From assembly GCA_021851895.1 (NCBI GenBank), contig JAJZQJ010000001.1, positions 71,338-135,337 on the forward strand: a stretch of DNA of 64,000 nucleotides, read 5' to 3'. The notes under the pieces are model-generated. The model was not told the DNA's origin. It worked only from the letters and a program-made list of their open reading frames with translations, and searched no databases. Source of the stretch: a bacterium (GTDB lineage Bacteria; Patescibacteriota; Minisyncoccia; Phycocordibacterales; UBA6899). Made by a program: the position numbers and the translations under genes. This document shows, piece by piece, positions 746 through 54,109 of this stretch (positions within the stretch are counted from its first letter, which is position 1; each line of letters opens with the position of its first letter).

Positions 746-773
746 AAAAACAGAACCACTGGTTCTGTTTTAT
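746..773 (-). terminator. Rho-independent terminator overlapping stop of pilin paralog 2
   Basis: aaaaACAGAACCActgGTTCTGTttttat. The paralogous copy at 2276-2298 carries compensatory changes (ACAGGACCAttgGTCCTGT). Confidence 0.6.
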
Positions 774-2224
774 CGCGCTACGATCTTCGTAACACTATTA
801 CCTCCCCTGTTTGCAGTCCATATATTTAAACCATCGAAAGTAATACCCACGGGGCCCGCACCCGTTCCCGTAAAGGTCGTCATTGGCGTTGGACTGAGTG
901 GATCGATCCTTGTCACACTATTGCCCGTATTATTTGCCGTCCACAAATATTTTCCATCAAACACGATCCCACTTGGACTTCCACCAGTCCCCGAATAAGT
1001 CGCAATGAGGGCCCCATTCGCTGGGTTGAACTTCGAAACACTATTAGTGTTATAATTCGTCGTCCATAAATAGGTGCCATCATATGCAATACCGAAGAGA
1101 TTAGCTCCGGATCCTGCCGTTGTATTCATTCCACCTGTTGTTATATCTATCTTTGTGATTCCGCTTACTCCCCAATTTGCTGTCCACATAGATGTTCCAT
1201 CAAATACGATCCCTGTCGGAATTGACCCAAGTCCCGAATAACTCGTTGTAGCACCTGAGGAAGTAACCTTGGTAACCGCATTTGATGCTTGATCCACTGC
1301 CCACATATTCGCACCATCAAAAGCTATGAAATAGGGATTCGTCAATGTTCCTCCATATGTTGTCATGGTTCCTGTAGGAGTCACCTTCGTCACACTATTT
1401 CCATTCCAATTCGTAACCCACATGTTCGTACCATCGAACGCAATACCTTCAGGATTTGCGCCAGTTCCAGGGTAATTGGTCATACTCCCATCTGTCGTGA
1501 TCTTTGTAACACTGTTCGTATTATAATTAGCAGTCCAGACGTTGTTTCCATCAAATGCGATTGCATAAGGACTTGCGCCAATACCCGTATAGGTTGTCAT
1601 TGTTCCAACTGTCGATGTCGATGAACATGAGGTATTGTACGTAAAGCTATACCCATTCCACGTTGCGCAAACAGGCGCGCCACCTCCACCTCCACCAGTT
1701 CCTGCGGCAATACCACCCCCCTCAGCAGAACCGATGTTCAGCACATAGTTGAATCCATTCGCGAGTGCATTTGTGCCATCACATGCTGCTGCGATCGTCG
1801 TTGAAGATTGTGCCAAAGCGCTCTGTTCGACTTTCACAAAAATACTATAATCCGACGAAGTAGCACAAACACCAAGATAATATGCACCATCACCATAGAC
1901 GGGGTCAATGAGATTGGTATTAGAATAGGTGTCTGCGTTCTTCAGGGCAGTAATGATCGACGTCGTGTAATCGGTCACGCCACTCTTTGCAAAGTATCCT
2001 GCACCCGTATTTTGGTATCCAGCACCTGCAACACGATATGATCCAGTACTCGTCTGATAAAGTTCAAGCGCGGTGCGGAGCTGCACTGCATTCGCCAAAC
2101 GATTCGCGTCACGTGACTTCACCCGTGCTTGCGAAAGTGCGACAAGCACGACGCTCGAGATAAGTGCGATGATCGCAATGACAACAAGGAGTTCGATGAG
2201 GGTAAAACCTCTATGACGATTCAT
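770..2224 (-). CDS. Type IV pilin-like protein fused to C-terminal beta-propeller repeat domain, paralog 2 (484 aa)
   Basis: N-terminus [24 protein letters not shown] (prepilin cleavage/methylation motif G|FTLIE), followed by a pilin-like head ([14 protein letters not shown]...). The C-terminal half has ~7-8 repeats of ~38 aa (P.GIAFDG.N.W.AN...NSVTKIT..G..TTY.G.G) resembling Vgb-lyase/NHL-type propeller blades. Confidence 0.75.
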
Positions 2225-2230
2225 GATTCA

Positions 2231-2259
2231 ATTATAATATATCGGATGCTGTTATACAA
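2231..2259 (-). promoter_or_regulatory. Sigma70-like promoter of pilin paralog 2 (duplicate of 704-732 cassette)
   Basis: Minus strand reads TTGTATaacagcatccgatatatTATAATtgaatcATG: 17-nt spacer, -10 is 6 nt from the start codon. Confidence 0.55.
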
Positions 2260-2275
2260 TGTATAGTGTCTGAAA

Positions 2276-2298
2276 AACAGGACCATTGGTCCTGTTTT
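2276..2298 (-). terminator. Rho-independent terminator of pilin paralog 3
   Basis: aaaACAGGACCAttgGTCCTGTttt, directly after the stop of 2297..3733. Confidence 0.6.
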
Positions 2299-3733
2299 AT
2301 CTTGCCACGATCTTCGTGATCGAACTTGAGTTATAATTCGGCGCCCACATACTTGTCCCATCGAATGTGATACCTGCGGATCCAACACCGGTCACCGCAT
2401 ACGAAGTAACACTTCCCAATGGAGTGATGCGTGATACCGTACTTGCGGTATAATTCGCGGTCCACATATTGATGCCATCGAACGCGATACTATTAACACC
2501 GGCACCGGTACCACCATAAGTCGACATCGCACCTGCAGGAGTGATTTTTGTCACACTCGCACCACCATTATTGCCTGTCCACATATTTGTACCGTCAAAT
2601 GCAATGGCGGCCGGATTTGATCCCGTTCCACCGTATGTTGTTATCGTCCCCGCAGGAGTGATCTTACTCACACTGTTTCCATTGAAATTCGCGGTCCACA
2701 TGTTCGTTCCATCAAAGGCGATGCCGTCAGGCTGTAAGCCCGTAGCGGCATAGGTCGTCATTGTACCCGATGGAGTGATCTTCGTTACATTATTATCTTG
2801 CCAATTTGCAGTCCACATATTCACTCCATCAAAAGCAATACCCGACGGCTTTGCTCCTGTACCTGTATATGTGGTCATGACTCCTGAAGGCGTGATCTTT
2901 GTCACACTATTCCCCCCTTGATTGGCGGTCCACATATTCGTCCCATCAAATGCAATATCGATCGGAGATAAACCAGTTCCCACATATGTTGTTGTTGCGC
3001 CCAAAGGAGTGATCTTCGTAACACTATTGCTCCCAAAATTGACCACCCACATATTCGTCCCATCGAATGCAGCAATACGTGGCTTCACCTGAAGACCAGG
3101 ATAATTTGTCACTGTGCCGAGAGCTGCGCCGGCCGTACAGGAGAGATTCCATTGCCAGCCGTAGCCATTCCACGTCGCGCAAACTTGCTGGGCAGGAGTA
3201 CCCTGTCCTGCAGCAAGACCAGCGCCACCTTCCGCTGAGCCAACATCCAATACGTAATTAAAACCATTCGCAAGTGCATTTGCTCCATCGCAGGCTGCAC
3301 CTACAGTTGTCGTCGATTGCGCGAGTGACGACTGCTCAAGCTTAAGAAAAATTGAATAGACCGAAGAGGTCGAACAAACTCCGAGAAAATATTCTGAATC
3401 TCCAAAAACGGGATCGACGAGATTTGATTGTGAATAATAACCGGAATTCTTGAGCGCACTGGTGATTGACGTTGCATAATCGACAACCCCTCCGCGTGTC
3501 ATGAATCCAGCACCCGTATTTTGGTATCCCGCACCTGCAACACGATATGATCCAGTACTCGTCTGATAAAGTTCAAGCGCGGTGCGGAGCTGCACTGCAT
3601 TTGCAAGACGATTCGCATCACGTGATTTCACGCGCGCTTGAGATAATGCAACAAGCACAGCGCTCGAGATAAGTGCGATGATCGCAATGACGACAAGGAG
3701 TTCGATGAGAGTGAAAGCTCTTCTATGAAACAT
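2297..3733 (-). CDS. Type IV pilin-like protein fused to C-terminal beta-propeller repeat domain, paralog 3 (478 aa)
   Basis: [24 protein letters not shown] prepilin N-terminus. The first ~70 aa are near-identical to paralog 2, then diverge. It carries eight [26 protein letters not shown] blades. Confidence 0.75.
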   Translation of the reverse strand: MFHRRAFTLIELLVVIAIIALISSAVLVALSQARVKSRDANRLANAVQLRTALELYQTSTGSYRVAGAGYQNTGAGFMTRGGVVDYATSITSALKNSGYYSQSNLVDPVFGDSEYFLGVCSTSSVYSIFLKLEQSSLAQSTTTVGAACDGANALANGFNYVLDVGSAEGGAGLAAGQGTPAQQVCATWNGYGWQWNLSCTAGAALGTVTNYPGLQVKPRIAAFDGTNMWVVNFGSNSVTKITPLGATTTYVGTGLSPIDIAFDGTNMWTANQGGNSVTKITPSGVMTTYTGTGAKPSGIAFDGVNMWTANWQDNNVTKITPSGTMTTYAATGLQPDGIAFDGTNMWTANFNGNSVSKITPAGTITTYGGTGSNPAAIAFDGTNMWTGNNGGASVTKITPAGAMSTYGGTGAGVNSIAFDGINMWTANYTASTVSRITPLGSVTSYAVTGVGSAGITFDGTSMWAPNYNSSSITKIVAR

Positions 3734-3794: not shown

Positions 3795-5588
3795 TTATGC
3801 TGTGACTTGACGCTTTGCTTTCGAGCGCTCTGTCTCAGTGAGGAGCTTCTTGCGCAAACGAATACTCTTTGGAGTAATCTCGAGATATTCATCATCATCC
3901 ATGATCTCCATACCGTTCTCGATACCGAGCACAACAGGAGGCACGAGATTGATCGCCTCATCAGAACCCGATGCACGCATGTTCGTGAGCTGCTTACCCT
4001 TTGTTGGATTCACAAGCATCTGCTCTCCCTTGCTCGTATTGCCGATGATCATTCCTTCGTATACTTCAGTCGTTGGAGTGATATATATTTCTCCGCGCTC
4101 CTGAAGATTCCAAAGCGAGAAAGCAAGTGCCTTACCGGACTCCATAGAGATCATCGCTCCCGCATTGCGGTGATCGATCTCTCCTGCCCATGGGCGGAAT
4201 CCGATGACGCGCGAAGACATAATACCTTCTCCGCGCGTATCAACGACAAATTGCATACGATAGCCAAGGAGTCCACGTGTTGGGCCCTCGAAAATCATAC
4301 GGACCATATTGTCATGCTGCACCATGTGCGTCATGACAGCGCCGCGCTTACCGAGCTTCTCGATCACCACGCCCTGTGATACGGATGGGACGTCGATAGT
4401 GACTTCCTCGAAAGGCTCGCTCTTAACGCCATCGATCTCTTTCACAATGACCTGCGGCTGTGAAATCTGGATTTCAAACCCTTCACGGCGCATGTTTTCG
4501 AGCAAGATAGCAATATGAAGCTCACCACGTCCTGCGACGCGAAAAGACTCACCCGAAGCGGAGTCAAAATCAACACGGAGACCGACGTTCACTTCGAGCT
4601 CCTTCTCGAGTCGCTCGCGAATCTGGCGACCGGTAACGAATTTACCTTCACGGCCTGCAAACGGAGAGTTATTGACGAGGAAGTTAAGCTCGATCGTCGG
4701 CTCATCGACAGTGATCATTGGAAGCTGCTCTACATCTGCAGAGTGTGCGATAGTCTCACCGATAAAGACATCGGGAATACCTGCAATGATACCGATATCA
4801 CCCGAAACGAGCTCGGGAACCTCAACGCGCTTGATACCGCGGAATGCGAAAAGCTTCGTGATCTTCGCTTTGCGCGCGACTCCATTATTCAAGACAATAA
4901 GATTATCCGCATCCTTCACAACACCGTCGACAACGCGAACGACTGCGAGGCGTCCAAGATAATTATCGTATGCGAGATTAAATGGCTGCGCACGCATTGG
5001 GAGCGAGGTATCGCCATTTGCAACCGGAACATACTCAAGGATCATATCAAGAAGTGGCGTGAGATCCTTACGCTCGTCATCAAGCTTGCGCATCGCAACG
5101 CCTTCGCGTCCGATCGCATAGCACACATGAAAATTCATCTGCTCCTGCGTTGCGCCGAGATCCATGAAAAGCTCGAGCACTTCCTCTTCTACGCGATGAG
5201 GATCAGCTGCAGGCTTGTCGATCTTGTTTATAACAACGATCGGCTTAAGACCCAAGTCGAGAGACTTCTTCAAGACGAAGCGCGTCTGTGGCATAGGACC
5301 TTCCTGGGCATCAACAATAAGGAGCACGCTATCGATCGAGCGCAAGACACGCTCAACTTCGGATCCGAAATCCGCGTGGCCTGGTGTGTCCACGATGTTG
5401 ATCTTTGTGTCCTTGTAGTATGCTGCAGTGTTCTTCGAGTAGATGGTGATGCCACGCTCAAGCTCAAGCGAGTTCGAGTCCATTGATTCACCCTCTGCAA
5501 ACATGCCCGTTTGGCGCATCAGCGCATCGGTCAATGTGGTCTTTCCGTGGTCGACGTGTGCGATGATCGCGATGTTGCGAATTTCCAT
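3795..5588 (-). CDS. typA: Translational GTPase BipA/TypA
   Basis: [30 protein letters not shown]... G-domain with TypA-like length and C-terminus. The ORF-track start at 5618 adds 10 residues; the conserved N-terminus begins at the second Met (5588). Confidence 0.9.
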
Positions 5589-6049
5589 AATAATATTGCG
5601 TTTAGTTGAGCATGGCACAAGGTTTAAGGAAAGCGAGTGGATGAAATTCGAGGAGCGGGCAAAACTTCGAAGAAGATGTACTTGAAGTACATTGACTGAG
5701 AAGTTTGGGTGCCCGCGACAAAGAAGTTCGCCTCTCGCTTTTCTTAAATAAAAAAGAGCCAGATGCCATGTAATAATGTCGCGATATTATAGCACGAAAA
5801 TTTTTATTTTACAAGGCCAAAATGAATTTTTCACAATGCTATACAACACTTTGCCTCGACGATGATTTTTTTGTTTAGCTAATACATTGTATAGACCCAC
5901 TCAAGTGATACGTGCCCTTCGCGGTGATCAGTACCCCACCGCTCATTCACCGAAGAACTACTTACATAAAAAATATTGCTTTGTTAAGGGATTTTTTTAT
6001 TACCATACCTATTTACAAAATTATGAAATAGTGTTATAGTCGTCCTCAT

Positions 6050-7492
6050 ATGAACTCATCCCGATCACACTCCTCGCGCGGAGGCTACGGAGACCGCCCG
6101 AAAGGTGGAGCACGCTCCTACGGACCACGCCCGTCTTTCGGTGACCGCAAGCCAACAGGTGCGCGCAAGTCATACGGAGACAAACCATCGTTTGGCAGCC
6201 GCCCTTCATTTGGCGAAAGGAAATCGTATGGAGATCGTCCATCATTTGGCGATCGCAAGCGCTCTCCATTTGGTGAACGTAAGTCATTTGGTGATCGAAA
6301 ACCATTTGGAGATCGTAAACCATTCGGAGATCGTCCATCCTATTCTGATCGACCAAGGAAATCATTTGGCGACAGACCATCATTCGGGGATCGCCCATCA
6401 TTCGGTGATCGCCCTCGAAGGTCATTCGGTGATCGTCCATCATTCGGGGATCGTAAGCCTTTCCGAGATGGCATGCGCTCTGAACATTCAGCACGATCGT
6501 TCTCACGAGCGCCTCGCGAGGAAAAGCCTGTCGAGAAGGAAGATTACTTCCCAAAGACATCTCGACGAAATGTCACACGAAGCTTCGACCAAGACTTCGA
6601 GAAAAAGAAGAGTGCACCAAAGAGTGAGCGCCCTTCTCTCATGAACGATGTCATGGCGCAAGCGACGAATGAGGCGGATACGCTGACTCCGCGAAAGCAA
6701 AAGGCGTACATGCGTACGACACCACAAAGCGCAACACCAAAGACCTCTTGGGGTGATGTGTCATCATGGTACGACGAGCATCTTGAAAATGAAACAGACA
6801 CCTATCACCTTCAAGTGATCCTTCCAAATCTCAAGCGCTTGATCACACCAGAGAATGGCACAAGCGTACTCGAGCTCGCCTGCGGACAAGGATTCTTTAC
6901 ACGACGTTTTCAGGATGCTTTCCCTGATGCGACCTTTGAAGGCGTCGATATTGGTGATGAGCTTATCGCTATCGCGCAGAAACGTGCACCGAAGATGCAT
7001 TTCGCGGTTGATAATGCGGAGGAACTGAAAACGATCGCTGATGCTTCGTTCGATACGGTGTACATCGTGCTCGCGATACAGAACATCGAGAACATGGAGA
7101 AACTCTTTGGGGAAGTCTCTCGTGTACTCAAACCGTCTGGAACATTCCATGTTGTCATGAACCACCCCGCGTTCCGCATACCAAGAGAATCATCTTGGGA
7201 ATATGTTGACGATAAGGGTATTCAAGCGAGACGCATCGATGCGTATCTCACGAACTCGAAAGTGAGTATGGAGATGCATCCGGGAATCATTGGTGCACCG
7301 CAGACCATCTCATTCCATCGCCCACTGCAAACCTACTTCAAACAACTTACGAAGTATGGCTTCGCTGTCGACCGACTTGAGGAGTGGATCTCTCATAAGG
7401 TGAGCGATTCAGGCCCACGCAAGGATGCTGAGAATAAAGCACGTAAAGAGTTCCCCCTCTTTATGTATCTCCGCGCAAAGAAACTTGGATAA
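6050..7492 (+). CDS. Class I SAM-dependent methyltransferase with ~170-aa N-terminal (R/K)SFGDRP tandem-repeat low-complexity region
   Basis: C-terminal half has VLELACGQGFF (motif I), DTVYIVLAIQNIEN and VLKPSGTFHV typical of the Methyltransf_11/25 fold. The N-terminal 6050-6560 encodes >15 degenerate copies of SFGDR(K)P. Confidence 0.7.
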   Translation: MNSSRSHSSRGGYGDRPKGGARSYGPRPSFGDRKPTGARKSYGDKPSFGSRPSFGERKSYGDRPSFGDRKRSPFGERKSFGDRKPFGDRKPFGDRPSYSDRPRKSFGDRPSFGDRPSFGDRPRRSFGDRPSFGDRKPFRDGMRSEHSARSFSRAPREEKPVEKEDYFPKTSRRNVTRSFDQDFEKKKSAPKSERPSLMNDVMAQATNEADTLTPRKQKAYMRTTPQSATPKTSWGDVSSWYDEHLENETDTYHLQVILPNLKRLITPENGTSVLELACGQGFFTRRFQDAFPDATFEGVDIGDELIAIAQKRAPKMHFAVDNAEELKTIADASFDTVYIVLAIQNIENMEKLFGEVSRVLKPSGTFHVVMNHPAFRIPRESSWEYVDDKGIQARRIDAYLTNSKVSMEMHPGIIGAPQTISFHRPLQTYFKQLTKYGFAVDRLEEWISHKVSDSGPRKDAENKARKEFPLFMYLRAKKLG

Positions 7493-7494
7493 AA

Positions 7495-7518
7495 AAACAC
7501 CGCGAAAGCGGTGTTTTT
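7495..7518 (+). terminator. Rho-independent terminator after methyltransferase gene
   Basis: aAACACCGCgaaaGCGGTGTTttt. Confidence 0.6.
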
Positions 7519-7544: not shown

Positions 7545-7877
7545 CTAGAAACGGTCACTTTCACGCCGAGGGGGCGGAGCCTGAACCGAATAGCCTTTCC
7601 TTAAGAGGAAGAAGAATGCGGTTGCCTCGAACTCGTCGGCCTCCACAGAGAAGTGCTGCTTCCCGTCGGCACTCTTCAAGACTACCGAACTACCGACGGA
7701 TGTGAACTCCAAAGAGTTGCGATCATGTCCGACGAGTTTCCCCGAGTGCATACGCTTTACCCAAGAGGACTCCTTGATATGCTCAGGATCGACCATCGCG
7801 GTCACACCGTCGATGATGACCTGCACACATCTTTTGCAGAACACACCCTTCAAGCGATCGATAAATGACATCGGCAT
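7545..7877 (-). CDS. Hypothetical protein (110 aa)
   Basis: GGAGG sits 8 nt upstream of the ATG on the minus strand. I recognise no domain. Confidence 0.4.
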   Translation of the reverse strand: MPMSFIDRLKGVFCKRCVQVIIDGVTAMVDPEHIKESSWVKRMHSGKLVGHDRNSLEFTSVGSSVVLKSADGKQHFSVEADEFEATAFFFLLRKGYSVQAPPPRRESDRF

Positions 7878-9670: not shown

Positions 9671-9694
9671 AAAACCCTAAGAAGGGTTTTTAAT
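9671..9694. terminator. Bidirectional rho-independent terminator (rpoD 3' end / convergent plus-strand transcripts)
   Basis: aaAAACCCTaagaAGGGTTTTtaa, overlapping the rpoD stop. Confidence 0.6.
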
Positions 9695-11060
9695 AATTGC
9701 GCAATTTATTGATGTTCTCGTGCTGCCTGATCTTCTCATGCGCTTTCGCCTCGATCTGCCTGATACGCTCACGTGTCACTCCAAACTCCTTACCCACTTC
9801 CTCAAGCGTATGCTGTACACCATCTTCAAGTCCATGACGCATCTCGAGGATCTTTCGCTCCTTTGGAGAGAGCTCCGCGAGTACCTCTTGGATTTGCTCC
9901 GAGAGAATGAGGCGCGAAACCTCTTGATCTGGAGAAAGTATACGTTCATCAGGTATGAATTCGCCGAGTGTTGACTTATCCTCATCATCACCGATCGGCT
10001 TTTCGAGTGAAACCGTATCTTGATCGATGTTCTGAATATTACGCACGCGCTCGACTTCGATGCCCATCTCCATGGCGATTTCCTCAGCCATTGGCTCACG
10101 GCCGAGATCCTGAGTCAAACGGCGGTGCACCTGCTTGTATTTTGCGATCGTCTCAACCATGTGTACCGGAATACGAATGGTACGCGATTGATCAGCGAGC
10201 GCACGGGTGATCGCCTGGCGAATCCACCACGTCGCGTAGGTGCTGAACTTGAATCCCTTTGACCAGTCAAATTTATCAACGGCTCGGAAGAGTCCGAGAT
10301 TACCCTCCTGAATGAGATCGAGCAAAGTAAGGTCTGGGGAACGACCGACATATTTCTTTGCGATCGAAACGACAAGACGGAGGTTTGCACGTGCAAGAAG
10401 TCCCATTGCCTCCTCATCGCCCGCAGCGATACGCTGCGCGAGCTCACGCTCATCTTTTGCAGTAAGCAATGGATACTGACCGATTTCGCGGAGATACATC
10501 TGTGTAGAATCTCCACCTGCACCCTTGCCAAGCTTTCGATTGATAAGCTCCTCATCGGTATGCACATCAAGGAGACCACCTGACTCTATGACATCAACAC
10601 CAAGGTTCGAAAGTTTCTCGTAGATATCATCAAGGAAATCGATATTGTTCTCTATGTCAGGATATGTGCGCAAAATCTCATCATACGTTACAAAGCCACG
10701 CTCCCTGCCGCGATGCACCAGCGACTGCAACTTATCCTCGAGGCCCTTTCGTGCGCGCTCGCCCGTCTTTGGTGGATTCGGTGCAAGTTTTACCTTTTCA
10801 AGCTTCGACGGCTTTGTGCTCGTCTTTGCAGTAGCCTTCTTTGCAGTGGCTTTCGACTGCACAACCTTCTTTGAGGCAGCATTCTTTGAAACAACCTTCT
10901 TGACCGCTGGCTTCTTTGCCGGTGCCTTCTTTATGACAGGCTTCTTCACCGCGACCTTTTTTGTCACGGGCTTCTTTACCACCACTTTCTTTGTGGTGAC
11001 CTTTTTCGCTGAAACAGTCTTTTTGACCGCAGCCTTAGTAGTCTTCTTTGTCGTCGGCAT
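9690..11060 (-). CDS. rpoD: RNA polymerase sigma factor RpoD (sigma-70) with lysine-rich N-terminal extension
   Basis: Regions 1.2-4 are recognisable: [23 protein letters not shown]; [40 protein letters not shown]; [20 protein letters not shown]. The first ~95 aa are KK(P/V/A) repeats. Confidence 0.95.
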
Positions 11061-48309: not shown

Positions 48310-48395
48310 CGTTCGAATCCCCGCGACTCCGCAAAAACAAAAAATGAACAAGCATTCTTGTTCATTTTTTGTTTTTGCGGAGTCGCGGGGATTCG
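48310..48395. repeat. Perfect ~42-bp-arm palindrome formed by an inverted copy of the tRNA-Ser 3' end plus trailer
   Basis: GTTCGAATCCCCGCGACTCCGCAAAAACAAAAAATGAACAAG cattc CTTGTTCATTTTTTGTTTTTGCGGAGTCGCGGGGATTCGAAC; the right arm is the 3' T-loop/acceptor of the tRNA gene itself. Confidence 0.8.
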
Positions 48396-48464
48396 AACCC
48401 CGGATGGCTGTTACACCATACTCACTTTCCAGGCGAGCGCACTAGACCACTATGCGACGACTCC
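48378..48464 (-). tRNA. tRNA-Ser (anticodon GGA), type II with long variable arm
   Basis: GGAGUCG-UC-GCAU-AGUGGUCUA-GUGC-G-CUCGC-CUGGAAA-GUGAG-UAUGGUGUAACAGCCAUC-CGGGG-UUCGAAU-CCCCG-CGACUCC-G; 87 nt, CCA not encoded. Confidence 0.9.
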
Positions 48465-51855: not shown

Positions 51856-53097
51856 TCACGGCTGCATTACTGCATTCTCGGGAGTAGCAGGGTGTGGACC
51901 TCCAGAAAACATGAATAATATCGCAGCGATAAGTGCAAGTGTCGCGCCATAGAAAAATGTCCACTCCGAACCAAAATGCGTCCAGAGCAATCCACCAACC
52001 AGCGATGCAAGGAATGCAGCGATTCCCGTAAGCATGTAGTAAAACCCATATGCTGTTCCAAGCTGCTCAGCAGGAACGAGCGTCGCGATATATGATTTCG
52101 AAACGCCGTCAGTAAGTGCCATATAGCACCCATAGATAGGAAAGAGTATCCATATCAATAATCCCGACTGCGCAAGTGCAAACCCGGCATAGACGAGCGC
52201 GAAGATGATGAGACCGAGTATGAATACATTCTTCTGTCCAAGCTTATCGGAGATGACACCAGCAGGAAGAGAGAATGCCGCGTAAGTAATGTTATAAAGC
52301 ACATATGTAAGCACCGTGAGTACCAGCGAGAACTCGAGGCCTTTCGCACGAAGAATGAGAAATGCATCGGAACTATTTCCAAGTGCAAAAACAGTAGCAA
52401 TGAAAGAGAAGAAGAGAAACTTCCGTGGCAATGAGCGGATACGGAACCTCTTGAATCCCTCCTCTACGGGACCGCGCTGCTTTTCTTTGATGTAAACAAG
52501 CAAGAGAATGAGCGCTGTCGTCGTCGGCACAAGTGCAAGGAAAAAGAGCAGGCGATAATTATCCTGGTAGAAGTGCAGAAAGAGTACGGCAAGTAATGGA
52601 CCGAGAATAGCACCGATCGTGTCTGCTCCGCGATGAAAACCAAATGCACTCCCCATCTTTCCTTGTTCCACATTTTCAGCGATCAATGCGTCGCGCGCAC
52701 CCGTGCGTACTCCCTTGCCGATACGACTGGTCACTTTTCCCGCAAGCACCATATGCCACGTATTTGCGAGACCATAGAAAAGATTAGCTATCGTTCCAAG
52801 ACCATAGCCGAGGACGACGAAGATCTTGCGCTTACGAGAGAGATCGGAGAGTTTGCCAAGGAATCCTTTAAGTAAACTCGACACACCCTCGGCAACACCC
52901 TCAATGAGTCCAACGACCGATGCAGGAGCGCCGAGCATCGTCGTCAAAAAGATAGGAATGATCGGATAGAGCATTTCCGAGGCGATGTCATTGAATAAAC
53001 TCACCACGGAGAGGACAAAAACTGGCGGTGTCACACCGAATTTCTTTTCAAGATAATCTCGCATATCATCAAAGTATACCATTGCGGTAAAACACAA
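51856..53097 (-). CDS. MFS transporter
   Basis: 12 TM helices; GKLSDLSRKRKIFVVLG-type loop 2-3 motif. Confidence 0.8.
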   Translation of the reverse strand: MCFTAMVYFDDMRDYLEKKFGVTPPVFVLSVVSLFNDIASEMLYPIIPIFLTTMLGAPASVVGLIEGVAEGVSSLLKGFLGKLSDLSRKRKIFVVLGYGLGTIANLFYGLANTWHMVLAGKVTSRIGKGVRTGARDALIAENVEQGKMGSAFGFHRGADTIGAILGPLLAVLFLHFYQDNYRLLFFLALVPTTTALILLLVYIKEKQRGPVEEGFKRFRIRSLPRKFLFFSFIATVFALGNSSDAFLILRAKGLEFSLVLTVLTYVLYNITYAAFSLPAGVISDKLGQKNVFILGLIIFALVYAGFALAQSGLLIWILFPIYGCYMALTDGVSKSYIATLVPAEQLGTAYGFYYMLTGIAAFLASLVGGLLWTHFGSEWTFFYGATLALIAAILFMFSGGPHPATPENAVMQP

Positions 53098-53151
53098 AAG
53101 AAATAAAAAATTACGGGGTCACTGAGTGACCCCGTAAGGGATTGCGGGAGG

Positions 53152-53898
53152 CTACTTCTTCTTGCCCCCCTTCTTGCCGCCCTCTTCCTGCTTCTTGCCG
53201 CCGCCGACCCCGATCTTGCCGGGGTACAGCGCGGCACGGCTCATCTGGTTGGCGCGCTGCCTGCTCTCGCGAGCCTTGCGCTCCTCGGCCTTATCGGCCT
53301 CGGACTCCGGGCCAGCGACGCGCCGGTAGAGCGTCAGCGGCTGATGGAGCTCAGGGTGGAACAGGACCAGCTGGCCGACGTTCTCGGCCTTGACGATGAA
53401 CCCGCAGCTGACCCACTCCTCATTGCTGAGGTGGTGCTTCAGCTCGGACTCGATGACCTCGCAGGTGGAGGTGATGATCGCGGGGACCTTCGTGCCGGTC
53501 GTCTTGATGGCGACGAGCACCTGGACCTTCTCGGTGAAGTAGGCCTTCGCCCCGAGGAGCACAGCCGCGCGCAGGAGCGCACTCATGCGCTTGCCGCGCT
53601 TCTCCACGTTGTCGGCCTTGAGGTTACCGAGGACGAAGTCGTGCTGCACGACGAGGAGCTTCTCGGGAATCTCCCGGGGCGCGTAGCGCGCCAGGTCCCT
53701 GAAGACGAACTCGGGGAGGAGGCCATTCTCGATGAAGAGATCGGCCGCCTCGGAGAACTTGTGCTCCTTGAGCAGCTCCTTGAGCGTCTTGATGTTGGCG
53801 TCGAACTTGTCCGGGCGCACGAACGACGGGGGCTTGGGCCCCTGCTTCTTGCTGGTCTTGTCGGTGGTGGCGGCCGGAGCCGAGGCCTGGGTGGCCAT
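53152..53898 (-). CDS. Hypothetical protein encoded in GC-rich islet (248 aa, K/G-rich C-terminal tail)
   Basis: GC-rich with strong GC3 bias, unlike all neighbouring genes. GAGGTG sits 5 nt upstream of the ATG. The protein is non-repetitive, whereas the opposite-strand ORFs read as L/E/G/R junk. C-terminus GGGKKQEEGGKKGGKKK. I recognise no family. Confidence 0.5.
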   Translation of the reverse strand: MATQASAPAATTDKTSKKQGPKPPSFVRPDKFDANIKTLKELLKEHKFSEAADLFIENGLLPEFVFRDLARYAPREIPEKLLVVQHDFVLGNLKADNVEKRGKRMSALLRAAVLLGAKAYFTEKVQVLVAIKTTGTKVPAIITSTCEVIESELKHHLSNEEWVSCGFIVKAENVGQLVLFHPELHQPLTLYRRVAGPESEADKAEERKARESRQRANQMSRAALYPGKIGVGGGKKQEEGGKKGGKKK

Positions 53899-54109
53899 AA
53901 TTGCACCTCGCTTTTAGAGGGTTTAGGAAATGTACATGCAACGGGCGTTCCCGTGGCATGTACATAATACCATAGATTGCAATTTTGTCAATACATCAAA
54001 TATATTGGTTTAATGTTCAGTTATATTGACAAATATAATATTTTATTGTATTATTACAATGGATAGCAAATATGCTTGGTCGATACCAAGCCTGCGCCAA
54101 GGAGCGCTC
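53899..54109. promoter_or_regulatory. AT-rich divergent promoter region with inverted repeat TTGTCAATA...TATTGACAA
   Basis: tttTGTCAATAcatcaaatatattggtttaatgttcagttataTTGACAaatat lies between the two divergently oriented GC-rich genes. Confidence 0.4.

Follow-up and report, generated by a model that had tools for sequence, protein, structure and literature searches.

The window analysed here is a 64,000-nucleotide (nt) stretch of contig JAJZQJ010000001.1 from a patescibacterial genome assembly (GCA_021851895.1), and the element under study is a methyltransferase gene whose 5' part consists of tandem repeats. The gene, taken from the list of open reading frames (ORFs), occupies positions 6050..7492 of the forward strand. 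It is complete and encodes 480 amino acids, which fall into a repeat tail, a linker, and a class I S-adenosylmethionine (SAM)-dependent methyltransferase core. The repeat array contains 18 copies of the hexapeptide (S/P)(F/Y)GDR(K/P) with an 18-nt period and covers residues 13–141 (6086..6472, forward strand). It is followed on the same strand by a non-repetitive, disordered linker with a net charge of +7 (residues 146–231, 6485..6742) and by the core (residues 232–480, 6743..7489), which has a Rossmann-type class I fold, the motif I sequence LELACGQG, and a beta-rich C-terminal lid. The SAM-methyltransferase gene and its repeats lie where a preliminary description of this DNA had placed them, and the peptide string quoted there is correct. 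Two additional frames of 179 codons each are open across the repeats, one on the forward strand in an alternative frame (6105..6644) and one on the reverse strand (6021..6560); neither is a gene, the second being a stop-free frame that results from the repetitive sequence.

The hexapeptide array is real and lies far beyond chance expectation. Its 18 copies are anchored by aromatic residues between positions 13 and 137 of the protein, with spacings of 6 residues (13 times), 8 residues (three times), and 11 and 12 residues (once each). The pattern [FY]G[DES][RK] is present 16 times in residues 1–145, compared with 0.23 ± 0.47 occurrences and a maximum of 3 in 10,000 composition-preserving shuffles, and the exact six-residue spacing of aromatics is present 13 times, compared with 1.2 ± 1.1 in the shuffles. 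Tandem Repeats Finder, whose use had been proposed at the outset, detects a tandem array with periods of 18 and 60 nt at 6266–6453. The array at 6206–6453 is picked up by this program, by a second repeat search, and by a mismatch-tolerant pattern search, and in the latter two the start-to-start spacing is mostly 18 nt. The unit is thus a hexapeptide encoded by 18 nt rather than the heptad of 21 nt first described, and the repeats end at residue 141 instead of extending over about 170 codons, the following residues 146–231 belonging to the non-repetitive linker. A search of all six frames of the window revealed no other protein with FGDR repeats.

The assignment of the tail to the RG/FG type also had to be given up. 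Its 145 residues contain one RG, one RGG, no GR, 13 FG, four YG, and 12 GDR motifs. An RGG/RG-box, or glycine/arginine-rich (GAR), domain is rejected on the basis of the single RG/RGG and of the aspartate that separates glycine from arginine, as in FGDR. In nucleoporins, FG motifs are separated by long, mostly uncharged hydrophilic spacers. Nucleoporin-type FG repeats are likewise rejected, because the four-residue spacers of the tail carry many charges. Charged residues account for a fraction of 0.39 in the repeat tail (residues 1–145), 0.36 in the linker, and 0.26 in the core, and the corresponding net charges are +20, +7, and -5. The mean hydropathy of the repeat tail is -1.72.

The DNA of the units is considerably more degenerate than the peptide. 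The 15 cleanest units have a mean nucleotide identity of 66%. Exact repeats in the region reach at most 17 nt, and an exact TCATTTGGCGATCG occurs just once. Codon differences among units comprise 273 synonymous and 170 non-synonymous changes, with four codons used for glycine and five for arginine. Such a combination of degenerate DNA and a maintained peptide is the signature of an old array under selection on the peptide.

Evidence that the repeats are translated comes mainly from the closest public homologue (P0004) and the contig on which it lies (L001). The annotated form of P0004 has 286 amino acids and starts at the equivalent of Met198. On contig L001, however, the frame is open for 483 amino acids from the start MNSPRSNSSRGG..., which closely matches MNSSRSHSSRGG... 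in the window. The beginning MNS.RS.SSRGG is common to the window protein, to the L001 frame (2224..3675), and to three full-length orthologues (P0001–P0003). Amino acid identity between the window and L001 amounts to 71% in the tail, 66% in the linker, and 76% in the core. Codon changes within the tail are divided equally between synonymous (39) and non-synonymous (39), and all insertions and deletions are of whole codons. A sigma-70-like promoter, TTTACA-17-TATAGT with an extended -10 TG (6012..6040, forward strand), is predicted immediately upstream on the basis of a scan match at 10 of 12 positions. This promoter-like element, TTTACA-17-TGTTATAGT, ends 9 nt before the ATG at 6050 and is retained in L001 (window 6012–6052; L001 2185–2226), the block common to the two promoter regions being TATTTACAAAATT...AATAGTGTTAT(A/T)GT(C/T)GTCCTCATATG. 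Given the tail identity, the whole-codon insertions and deletions, and the conservation of promoter and start in L001, the repeats are taken to be translated and selected as protein. No Shine–Dalgarno sequence is present upstream of the ATG at 6050, and together with the short distance from the promoter this suggests a leaderless or near-leaderless mRNA.

In the AlphaFold model of the full protein, calculated with a 40-sequence alignment, residues 1–230 have predicted local distance difference test (pLDDT) values of 37–52 and no secondary structure except for a five-residue helix at 199–203, in agreement with the long, translated, disordered N-terminal repeat tail initially proposed. It is regarded as very likely that the tail exists as described, is translated, and is disordered. 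One part of the linker stands out: residues ~197–227 (6638–6730, LMNDVMAQATNEADTLTPRKQKAYMRTTP) are conserved in the clade, near-identical in L001, and still recognisable in P0001 and P0003 (..RPRKQRAYMR..). The segment LMNDVMAQATNEADTLTPRKQKAYMRTTP may represent a short linear motif, or else the core may extend into it.

The core itself is modelled with confidence. Residues 232–480 adopt a class I SAM-methyltransferase fold, most of it with pLDDT above 90, and a model of the core alone has a mean pLDDT of 85.9, a predicted TM-score (pTM) of 0.81, and alternating beta-alpha elements. Residues 273–366 match the Pfam families PF08241 (Methyltransf_11; 64 bits, cut-off 21.2) and PF13649 (Methyltransf_25; 64 bits, cut-off 27), scores that uphold the methyltransferase assignment made in the preliminary description. 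Foldseek gives a probability of 1.0 for many class I methyltransferases, and G279 and G281 of motif I (LELACGQG) are invariant in the family alignment. By sequence and by model, the protein is a class I SAM-dependent methyltransferase for which methyl transfer is predicted.

The C-terminal lid carries further invariant motifs in the family alignments, namely NHPxFRxP, RR..Y, FHR, EEW.S, and SGPR..AE..AR.E.P. The invariant arginines and aromatic residues of the lid are compatible with an anionic substrate, without being diagnostic of one. An interpretation of NHPxF as the NPPY-type motif IV of amino-methyltransferases was rejected, as the model places it after the fifth strand (E146–157) and not after beta-4. 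In terms of both sequence and fold, the best relatives of the core are 3bkw from Mesorhizobium loti and 3g5l from Listeria monocytogenes, two uncharacterised structural-genomics proteins. The matches have profile E-values of 2e-23 and 4e-21, Foldseek E-values of 4e-17 and 3e-16, and target-normalised TM-scores of 0.70–0.75, and they take in the C-terminal lid of the window core. Identity is, however, just 22–26%, and neither protein has a tail. No paper in the literature collection searched names 3bkw or 3g5l. Two more specific assignments were considered and rejected. Homologues labelled by JGI as UbiE/MenG quinone C-methyltransferases would suggest that activity, but the window protein reaches just 56.4 bits for TIGR01934 (cut-off 158.35) and 48 for NF001244 (cut-off 216), and the UbiE models align to the SAM-binding part only. 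RlmA(I), the 23S rRNA m1G745 methyltransferase, is represented by NF008300, for which the score is 41 bits (cut-off 303). The initial description of the protein as an rRNA/tRNA enzyme is not borne out by the catalytic core, which yields no substrate assignment.

The indication of a role in RNA biology comes from other proteins with the same type of tail. A tail-only search of a word-indexed database returned fragments fused to SpoU_sub_bind, S4, RRM, DEAD-box, zf_Tbcl_2, and 23S_rRNA_IVP domains, as well as to an RsmB-like NusB domain that was identified by eye without Pfam. An exhaustive phmmer search with the tail as the only query, covering 1.84 billion representatives, found 247 proteins at E <= 1e-3, 59 of them at E <= 1e-10. 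A Pfam census of the best 142 of these 247 is headed by DEAD/Helicase_C (21–22 tail carriers), followed by S4 (16), PseudoU_synth_2 of the RluB-like type (13), SpoU_methylase (8), and NusB (4). Three carriers each have Methyltr_RsmB-F, Methyltrans_SAM (RlmI-like), or DbpA; two each have Cons_hypoth95 (RsmD), IF2, RRM, or S1_2/CvfB; and one has Nop. The source names include a TrmH-family RNA methyltransferase, DeaD, and a 23S rRNA pseudouridine2605 synthase (Bacteroidales bacterium), as well as a DEAD/DEAH-box helicase of Inhella gelatinilytica. Five proteins (P0121, P0131, P0159, P0160, and P0168) are of rRNA-modifying type (RluB-, RlmB/TrmH-, or RsmB-like) and have the same hexapeptide repeats. 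A minority of carriers belong to unrelated families; the non-RNA carriers among the matches include VIT/VWA, YdcK solenoid, flavin reductase, and FHA proteins.

Among carriers the repeat sits at either terminus. It is an accessory that, though uncommon, turns up again and again in different phyla on enzymes that remodel RNA or modify rRNA. The statement that such arms are rare in bacteria therefore needs a qualification: the tail is uncommon, with 247 clusters in 1.84 billion, but it recurs in Burkholderiales, Bacteroidales, Christensenellales, Fibrobacteraceae, and Patescibacteria. The suggestion of a nucleic-acid tether gains genuine, if indirect, support, in that the carriers are mainly RNA helicases, rRNA-modifying enzymes, and IF2, RRM, or S1 proteins. 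Two observations concern the search itself. Five weaker tail matches (in the P0236–P0300 set) are Hexapep left-handed beta-helix acyltransferases, which probably reflect a shared six-residue periodicity rather than homology and represent a caveat for repeat-based searches. One short match, P0129 (164 amino acids), combines an FGDK/FGER tail with an RsmB-like NusB segment and an AraC-type helix-turn-helix, and may be a chimeric contig or a mis-assembly. A literature search for the motif strings, for Patescibacteria with disordered methyltransferases, and for this methyltransferase family found no paper.

The methyltransferase family comprises 1,669 matches among 8,000 candidates scored in a 5.8-billion-protein set and is present in at least 568 GTDB species genomes, mostly labelled Patescibacteria or Candidate Phyla Radiation (CPR), with a few titles of metagenome-assembled genomes naming other groups. 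Its nearest members belong to Candidatus Lloydbacteria, with 58–59% identity in the scan and 59–61% core identity by tblastn. When true ORFs were re-derived from the DNA of 84 loci, more than 100 residues preceded the core in 12, concentrated in the Lloydbacteria-like clade nearest the window. Among the 116 top full-length homologues, 53 have tails longer than 100 residues. Every one of these tails carries a net positive charge (+19 to +36), and lysine plus arginine make up 18–31% and aromatic residues 6–16%, while the sequences differ widely. Conservation of composition without conservation of sequence is what would be expected of a nucleic-acid-binding disordered region. On a neighbour-joining tree of the cores, FGDR-type repeats occur at no fewer than four places, a lead only, as this is a distance tree without support values.

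The gene neighbourhood was considered as well. Upstream and divergent from the methyltransferase gene lies a TypA/BipA-like ribosome-associated GTPase (3795..5618, reverse strand; identified from its translation), and BipA Pfam domains are found at the same position in L001, L005/L006, and L087. A bipA gene lies within 4 kb of the methyltransferase at 16 of 84 loci, mainly in the tail-bearing clade (the window, L001, Lloydbacteria-like genomes, and a few others), and RsmE is the downstream neighbour at 4 of 77. The bipA and RsmE context lends weak support to a role in RNA biology and is too weak for assigning a function. In L001, where BipA is 96% identical, an additional ORF (1581..2108, forward strand; 154–175 amino acids, hydrophobic or membrane-like by eye) lies between bipA and the methyltransferase; the window has no such ORF, and the intergenic distance is 431 nt compared with 778 nt in L001. 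Downstream, a hairpin (CACCGC-GAAA-GCGGTG, 7498..7518) is preceded by seven A and followed by TTTTT. It was read from the sequence and is not listed by the consensus scan. It probably serves as an intrinsic terminator in both directions, for the methyltransferase gene on one side and for the convergent ORF at 7545..7877 (reverse strand) on the other. The latter encodes 110 amino acids, has no Pfam match, and keeps its position in L001, L087, and L088.

Several known systems offer a framework for interpreting the tail. In the RhlE helicases of Pseudomonas aeruginosa (RhlE1/RhlE2), basic disordered C-terminal extensions account for the greater part of the affinity for RNA and favour clustering (PMC11260450). 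The disordered regions of Escherichia coli CsdA/DeaD are rich in arginine, glycine, and proline, promote condensation, and recruit ribosome-biogenesis factors (bioRxiv 10.64898/2026.09.17.752289). Like the tail studied here, these DEAD-box helicase tails are long, rapidly evolving, net-positive, disordered regions of low complexity attached to an RNA enzyme, and no class contributes more carriers of the very same FGDR-type hexapeptide repeats than the DEAD-box helicases. The window tail differs in being N-terminal, in being attached to a Methyltransf_11-type methyltransferase, in having a regular hexapeptide instead of a poly-Lys or RG-rich sequence, and in being known from sequence only. A second parallel is provided by site-specific bacterial rRNA-modifying enzymes of the RluB-, RlmB/TrmH-, and RsmB-like types, which have a disordered terminal tail, in some cases with the same FGDR repeats; their cores, in contrast to that of the window protein, have known RNA substrates. 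The C-terminal 40 residues of E. coli RluB are poorly conserved, predicted to be disordered, and dispensable for binding of a minimal substrate (PMC3919597). Of the known systems, the disordered tails of RluB and of bacterial DEAD-box helicases come nearest to the window tail in kind.

Two more distant comparisons are useful. In fibrillarin/Nop1, an N-terminal, positively charged disordered region (GAR) precedes a SAM-methyltransferase domain that acts on rRNA 2'-O positions, and disordered regions of snoRNP proteins, the GAR and KKE/D domains, gather modification enzymes close to nascent rRNA (PMC11528048). The window protein, however, belongs to an unrelated catalytic family and has no fibrillarin Pfam match, a single RGG in its tail, and no guide RNA, so that the likeness is one of analogy only. 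In Borg elements, new disordered stretches of protein are generated by in-frame DNA tandem repeats, which are reported to be of recent origin and to evolve fast (PMC9879509). The window array resembles these in being an in-frame tandem repeat that gives rise to a disordered segment, and differs from them in that its DNA units have diverged to 66% identity with the peptide conserved; for this reason the array is judged to be old and under purifying selection.

On this basis, the following mechanism is proposed. The protein is a cytoplasmic, Patescibacteria-specific class I SAM-dependent methyltransferase that acquired a disordered N-terminal extension of about 230 residues in the lineage of the present genome, which lies near Candidatus Lloydbacteria. 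The roughly 18 hexapeptide repeats in its first 145 residues arose by in-frame duplication of a unit and were later retained at the protein level, yielding a net-positive polyampholyte studded with aromatic residues. By analogy with the basic disordered tails of bacterial DEAD-box helicases, the tail would serve as a multivalent RNA-binding arm of low specificity, with arginine and lysine contacting phosphates and phenylalanine and tyrosine stacking on bases. With such an arm, the enzyme would accumulate locally on large RNA, for which nascent rRNA or intermediates of ribosome assembly are the most likely candidates, and site specificity and catalysis would come from the folded core. Binding of RNA by the tail is fairly probable, and for methylation of RNA by the core the chances are about even. 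The whole chain, an RNA-tethering tail on a probable RNA methyltransferase, is considered probable by a small degree.

A number of observations weigh against this proposal. The next structural relatives of the core after 3bkw and 3g5l are mostly small-molecule methyltransferases (ToxA, phosphoethanolamine N-methyltransferases, and MtfA). The core has no RNA signal of its own in Pfam, NCBIfam, phmmer and profile searches of PDB sequences, or Foldseek searches of the PDB, and no NCBIfam model reaches its cut-off for the methyltransferase protein. The alignment with 1p91, the structure of RlmA(I), is limited to residues 53–150 of the core query, that is, to the SAM-binding region. Aspartate and glutamate make up ~12% of the tail residues, which weakens a simple polycation model. 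The tail is not needed for basic activity, since 70 of 84 loci have only a short stretch of 3–45 residues before the core. Finally, gene neighbourhoods in the family are otherwise heterogeneous (MFS 9, CAP 7, and P-type ATPase 5 in 77–84 loci).

The most serious alternative is that the tail is a disordered module unrelated to RNA, acting in self-association or condensate formation, in protein docking, or as a methylation substrate itself, and that the core acts on a small molecule, a lipid, or a protein. The structural neighbours with known substrates, mainly small-molecule enzymes, favour it, as do the non-RNA tail carriers noted above. Furthermore, a charged, aromatic-rich polyampholyte composition is also typical of condensate-forming sequences, and the disordered regions of CsdA and RhlE are reported to promote condensation. 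However, condensation and RNA binding are not mutually exclusive, and the carriers are overwhelmingly RNA helicases and rRNA/tRNA enzymes. Patescibacteria have a minimal small-molecule metabolism and no known quinone pathway, which makes a family found in at least 568 species likelier to target a macromolecule. Taken together, a non-RNA function is regarded as unlikely, though it deserves to be kept in view. The RNA-tethering proposal can also be extended: the (K/R)(S/P)(F/Y)GD(R/K) hexapeptide would then go beyond generic basic low-complexity sequence and be a specific, repeatedly and independently evolved bacterial module, a functional equivalent of the eukaryotic GAR domain that brings helicases, pseudouridine synthases, and methyltransferases to nascent rRNA, possibly in a nucleolus-like condensate, with the patescibacterial family as a new rRNA-modification enzyme and the tail gained separately in at least four clades. 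This extended version is speculative and rather improbable.

The remaining alternatives concern the gene rather than its function and survive less well. Translation could start at the internal Met198 (ATG 6641; a start at ~6650 had been mentioned initially as a possible refutation), which would leave the repeats as an untranslated leader or a separate element. This would agree with public gene calls, in which the closest homologues (P0004 and P0005) have 286 amino acids from the equivalent methionine, and with the two further frames open across the repeats. These calls are nevertheless explained in L001 by mis-calling: a 156-residue shadow ORF was called in another repeat frame, and the methyltransferase was cut to the internal methionine. 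The comparison with L001 speaks against an internal start, through the frame open for 483 codons from a conserved beginning, the tail identity of 71%, the 1:1 ratio of synonymous to non-synonymous changes, and the exclusively whole-codon insertions and deletions. The promoter lies immediately 5' of the ATG at 6050, and the gene calls for P0001–P0003, like those for many homologues at greater distance, are full length and include a tail. An internal start is consequently very improbable.

A slipped-strand contingency locus, as also suggested in the preliminary description, would change its copy number rapidly between cells and thereby alter or switch the protein. Tail length before the core does vary (231 residues in the window, 234 in L001, about 320 in P0001/P0002, and 201 in P0003), P0001 contains recent higher-order duplications, and the insertions and deletions between the window and L001 lie in the array. 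This variation is, however, observed between species and not between strains. On/off switching is impossible with an 18-nt unit that keeps the frame, efficient slippage is not expected of units that share 66% identity and have no exact repeat above 17 nt, and two assemblies have DNA identical to that of the window. Strain variation in copy number was sought by scanning metagenome contigs for the exact promoter/start pattern, which gave 0 matches, and by a protein-based metagenome scan, which returned mostly unrelated genes with only the tail in common. The contingency reading is thus to be given very little credence.

That the repeat region is an assembly artefact, collapsed or expanded, is scarcely credible: repeats are a classic source of mis-assembly, but the identical 480-residue protein and identical DNA over 4.5 kb occur in a 119-kb ENA contig and a Logan contig produced by two assemblers (possibly from the same reads, and located by an exact-protein look-up that finds identical copies only), the units are degenerate enough for unique short-read assembly, and orthologues from unrelated samples have the same architecture.

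Other features of the window were also recorded. An RpoD-like sigma-70 protein of 456 amino acids (9690..11060, reverse strand) has a lysine-rich, low-complexity N-terminal tail of ~95 residues before region 1.1, with a sub-threshold match to the histone-H1-like Pfam family HC2. This is a second basic disordered tail in the window, and its composition is different from that of the methyltransferase tail. Two paralogues of ~480 amino acids on the reverse strand (770..2224 and 2297..3733) combine an N-terminal type IV pilin-like N_methyl motif with a beta-propeller of the Vgb_lyase/SGL type, an architecture that is unusual. The sole Rfam match in the window is an 87-nt tRNA (48378–48464, reverse strand), and the GC fraction at 52001–54000 rises to 0.54, compared with ~0.47–0.49 in adjacent intervals.

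The methyltransferase tail does not reveal a new mechanism. Its significance lies in its setting. Patescibacteria have reduced genomes, and their ribosome biogenesis is unusual and experimentally inaccessible. Disordered basic tails are now recognised as functional parts of bacterial RNA helicases. For bacterial RNA-modifying enzymes they have received little attention, and for Patescibacteria none. The locus represents a clean, testable case of a conserved repeat tail, selected at the protein level, on an orphan methyltransferase family of hundreds of CPR species. Tails of the FGDR type are under-reported in public protein sets, because gene callers start at internal methionines and call shadow ORFs in the repeats. 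The hexapeptide motif, which is defined by sequence, flags RNA helicases and rRNA-modifying enzymes in different phyla, and its presence on other orphan enzymes could serve to predict their association with RNA.

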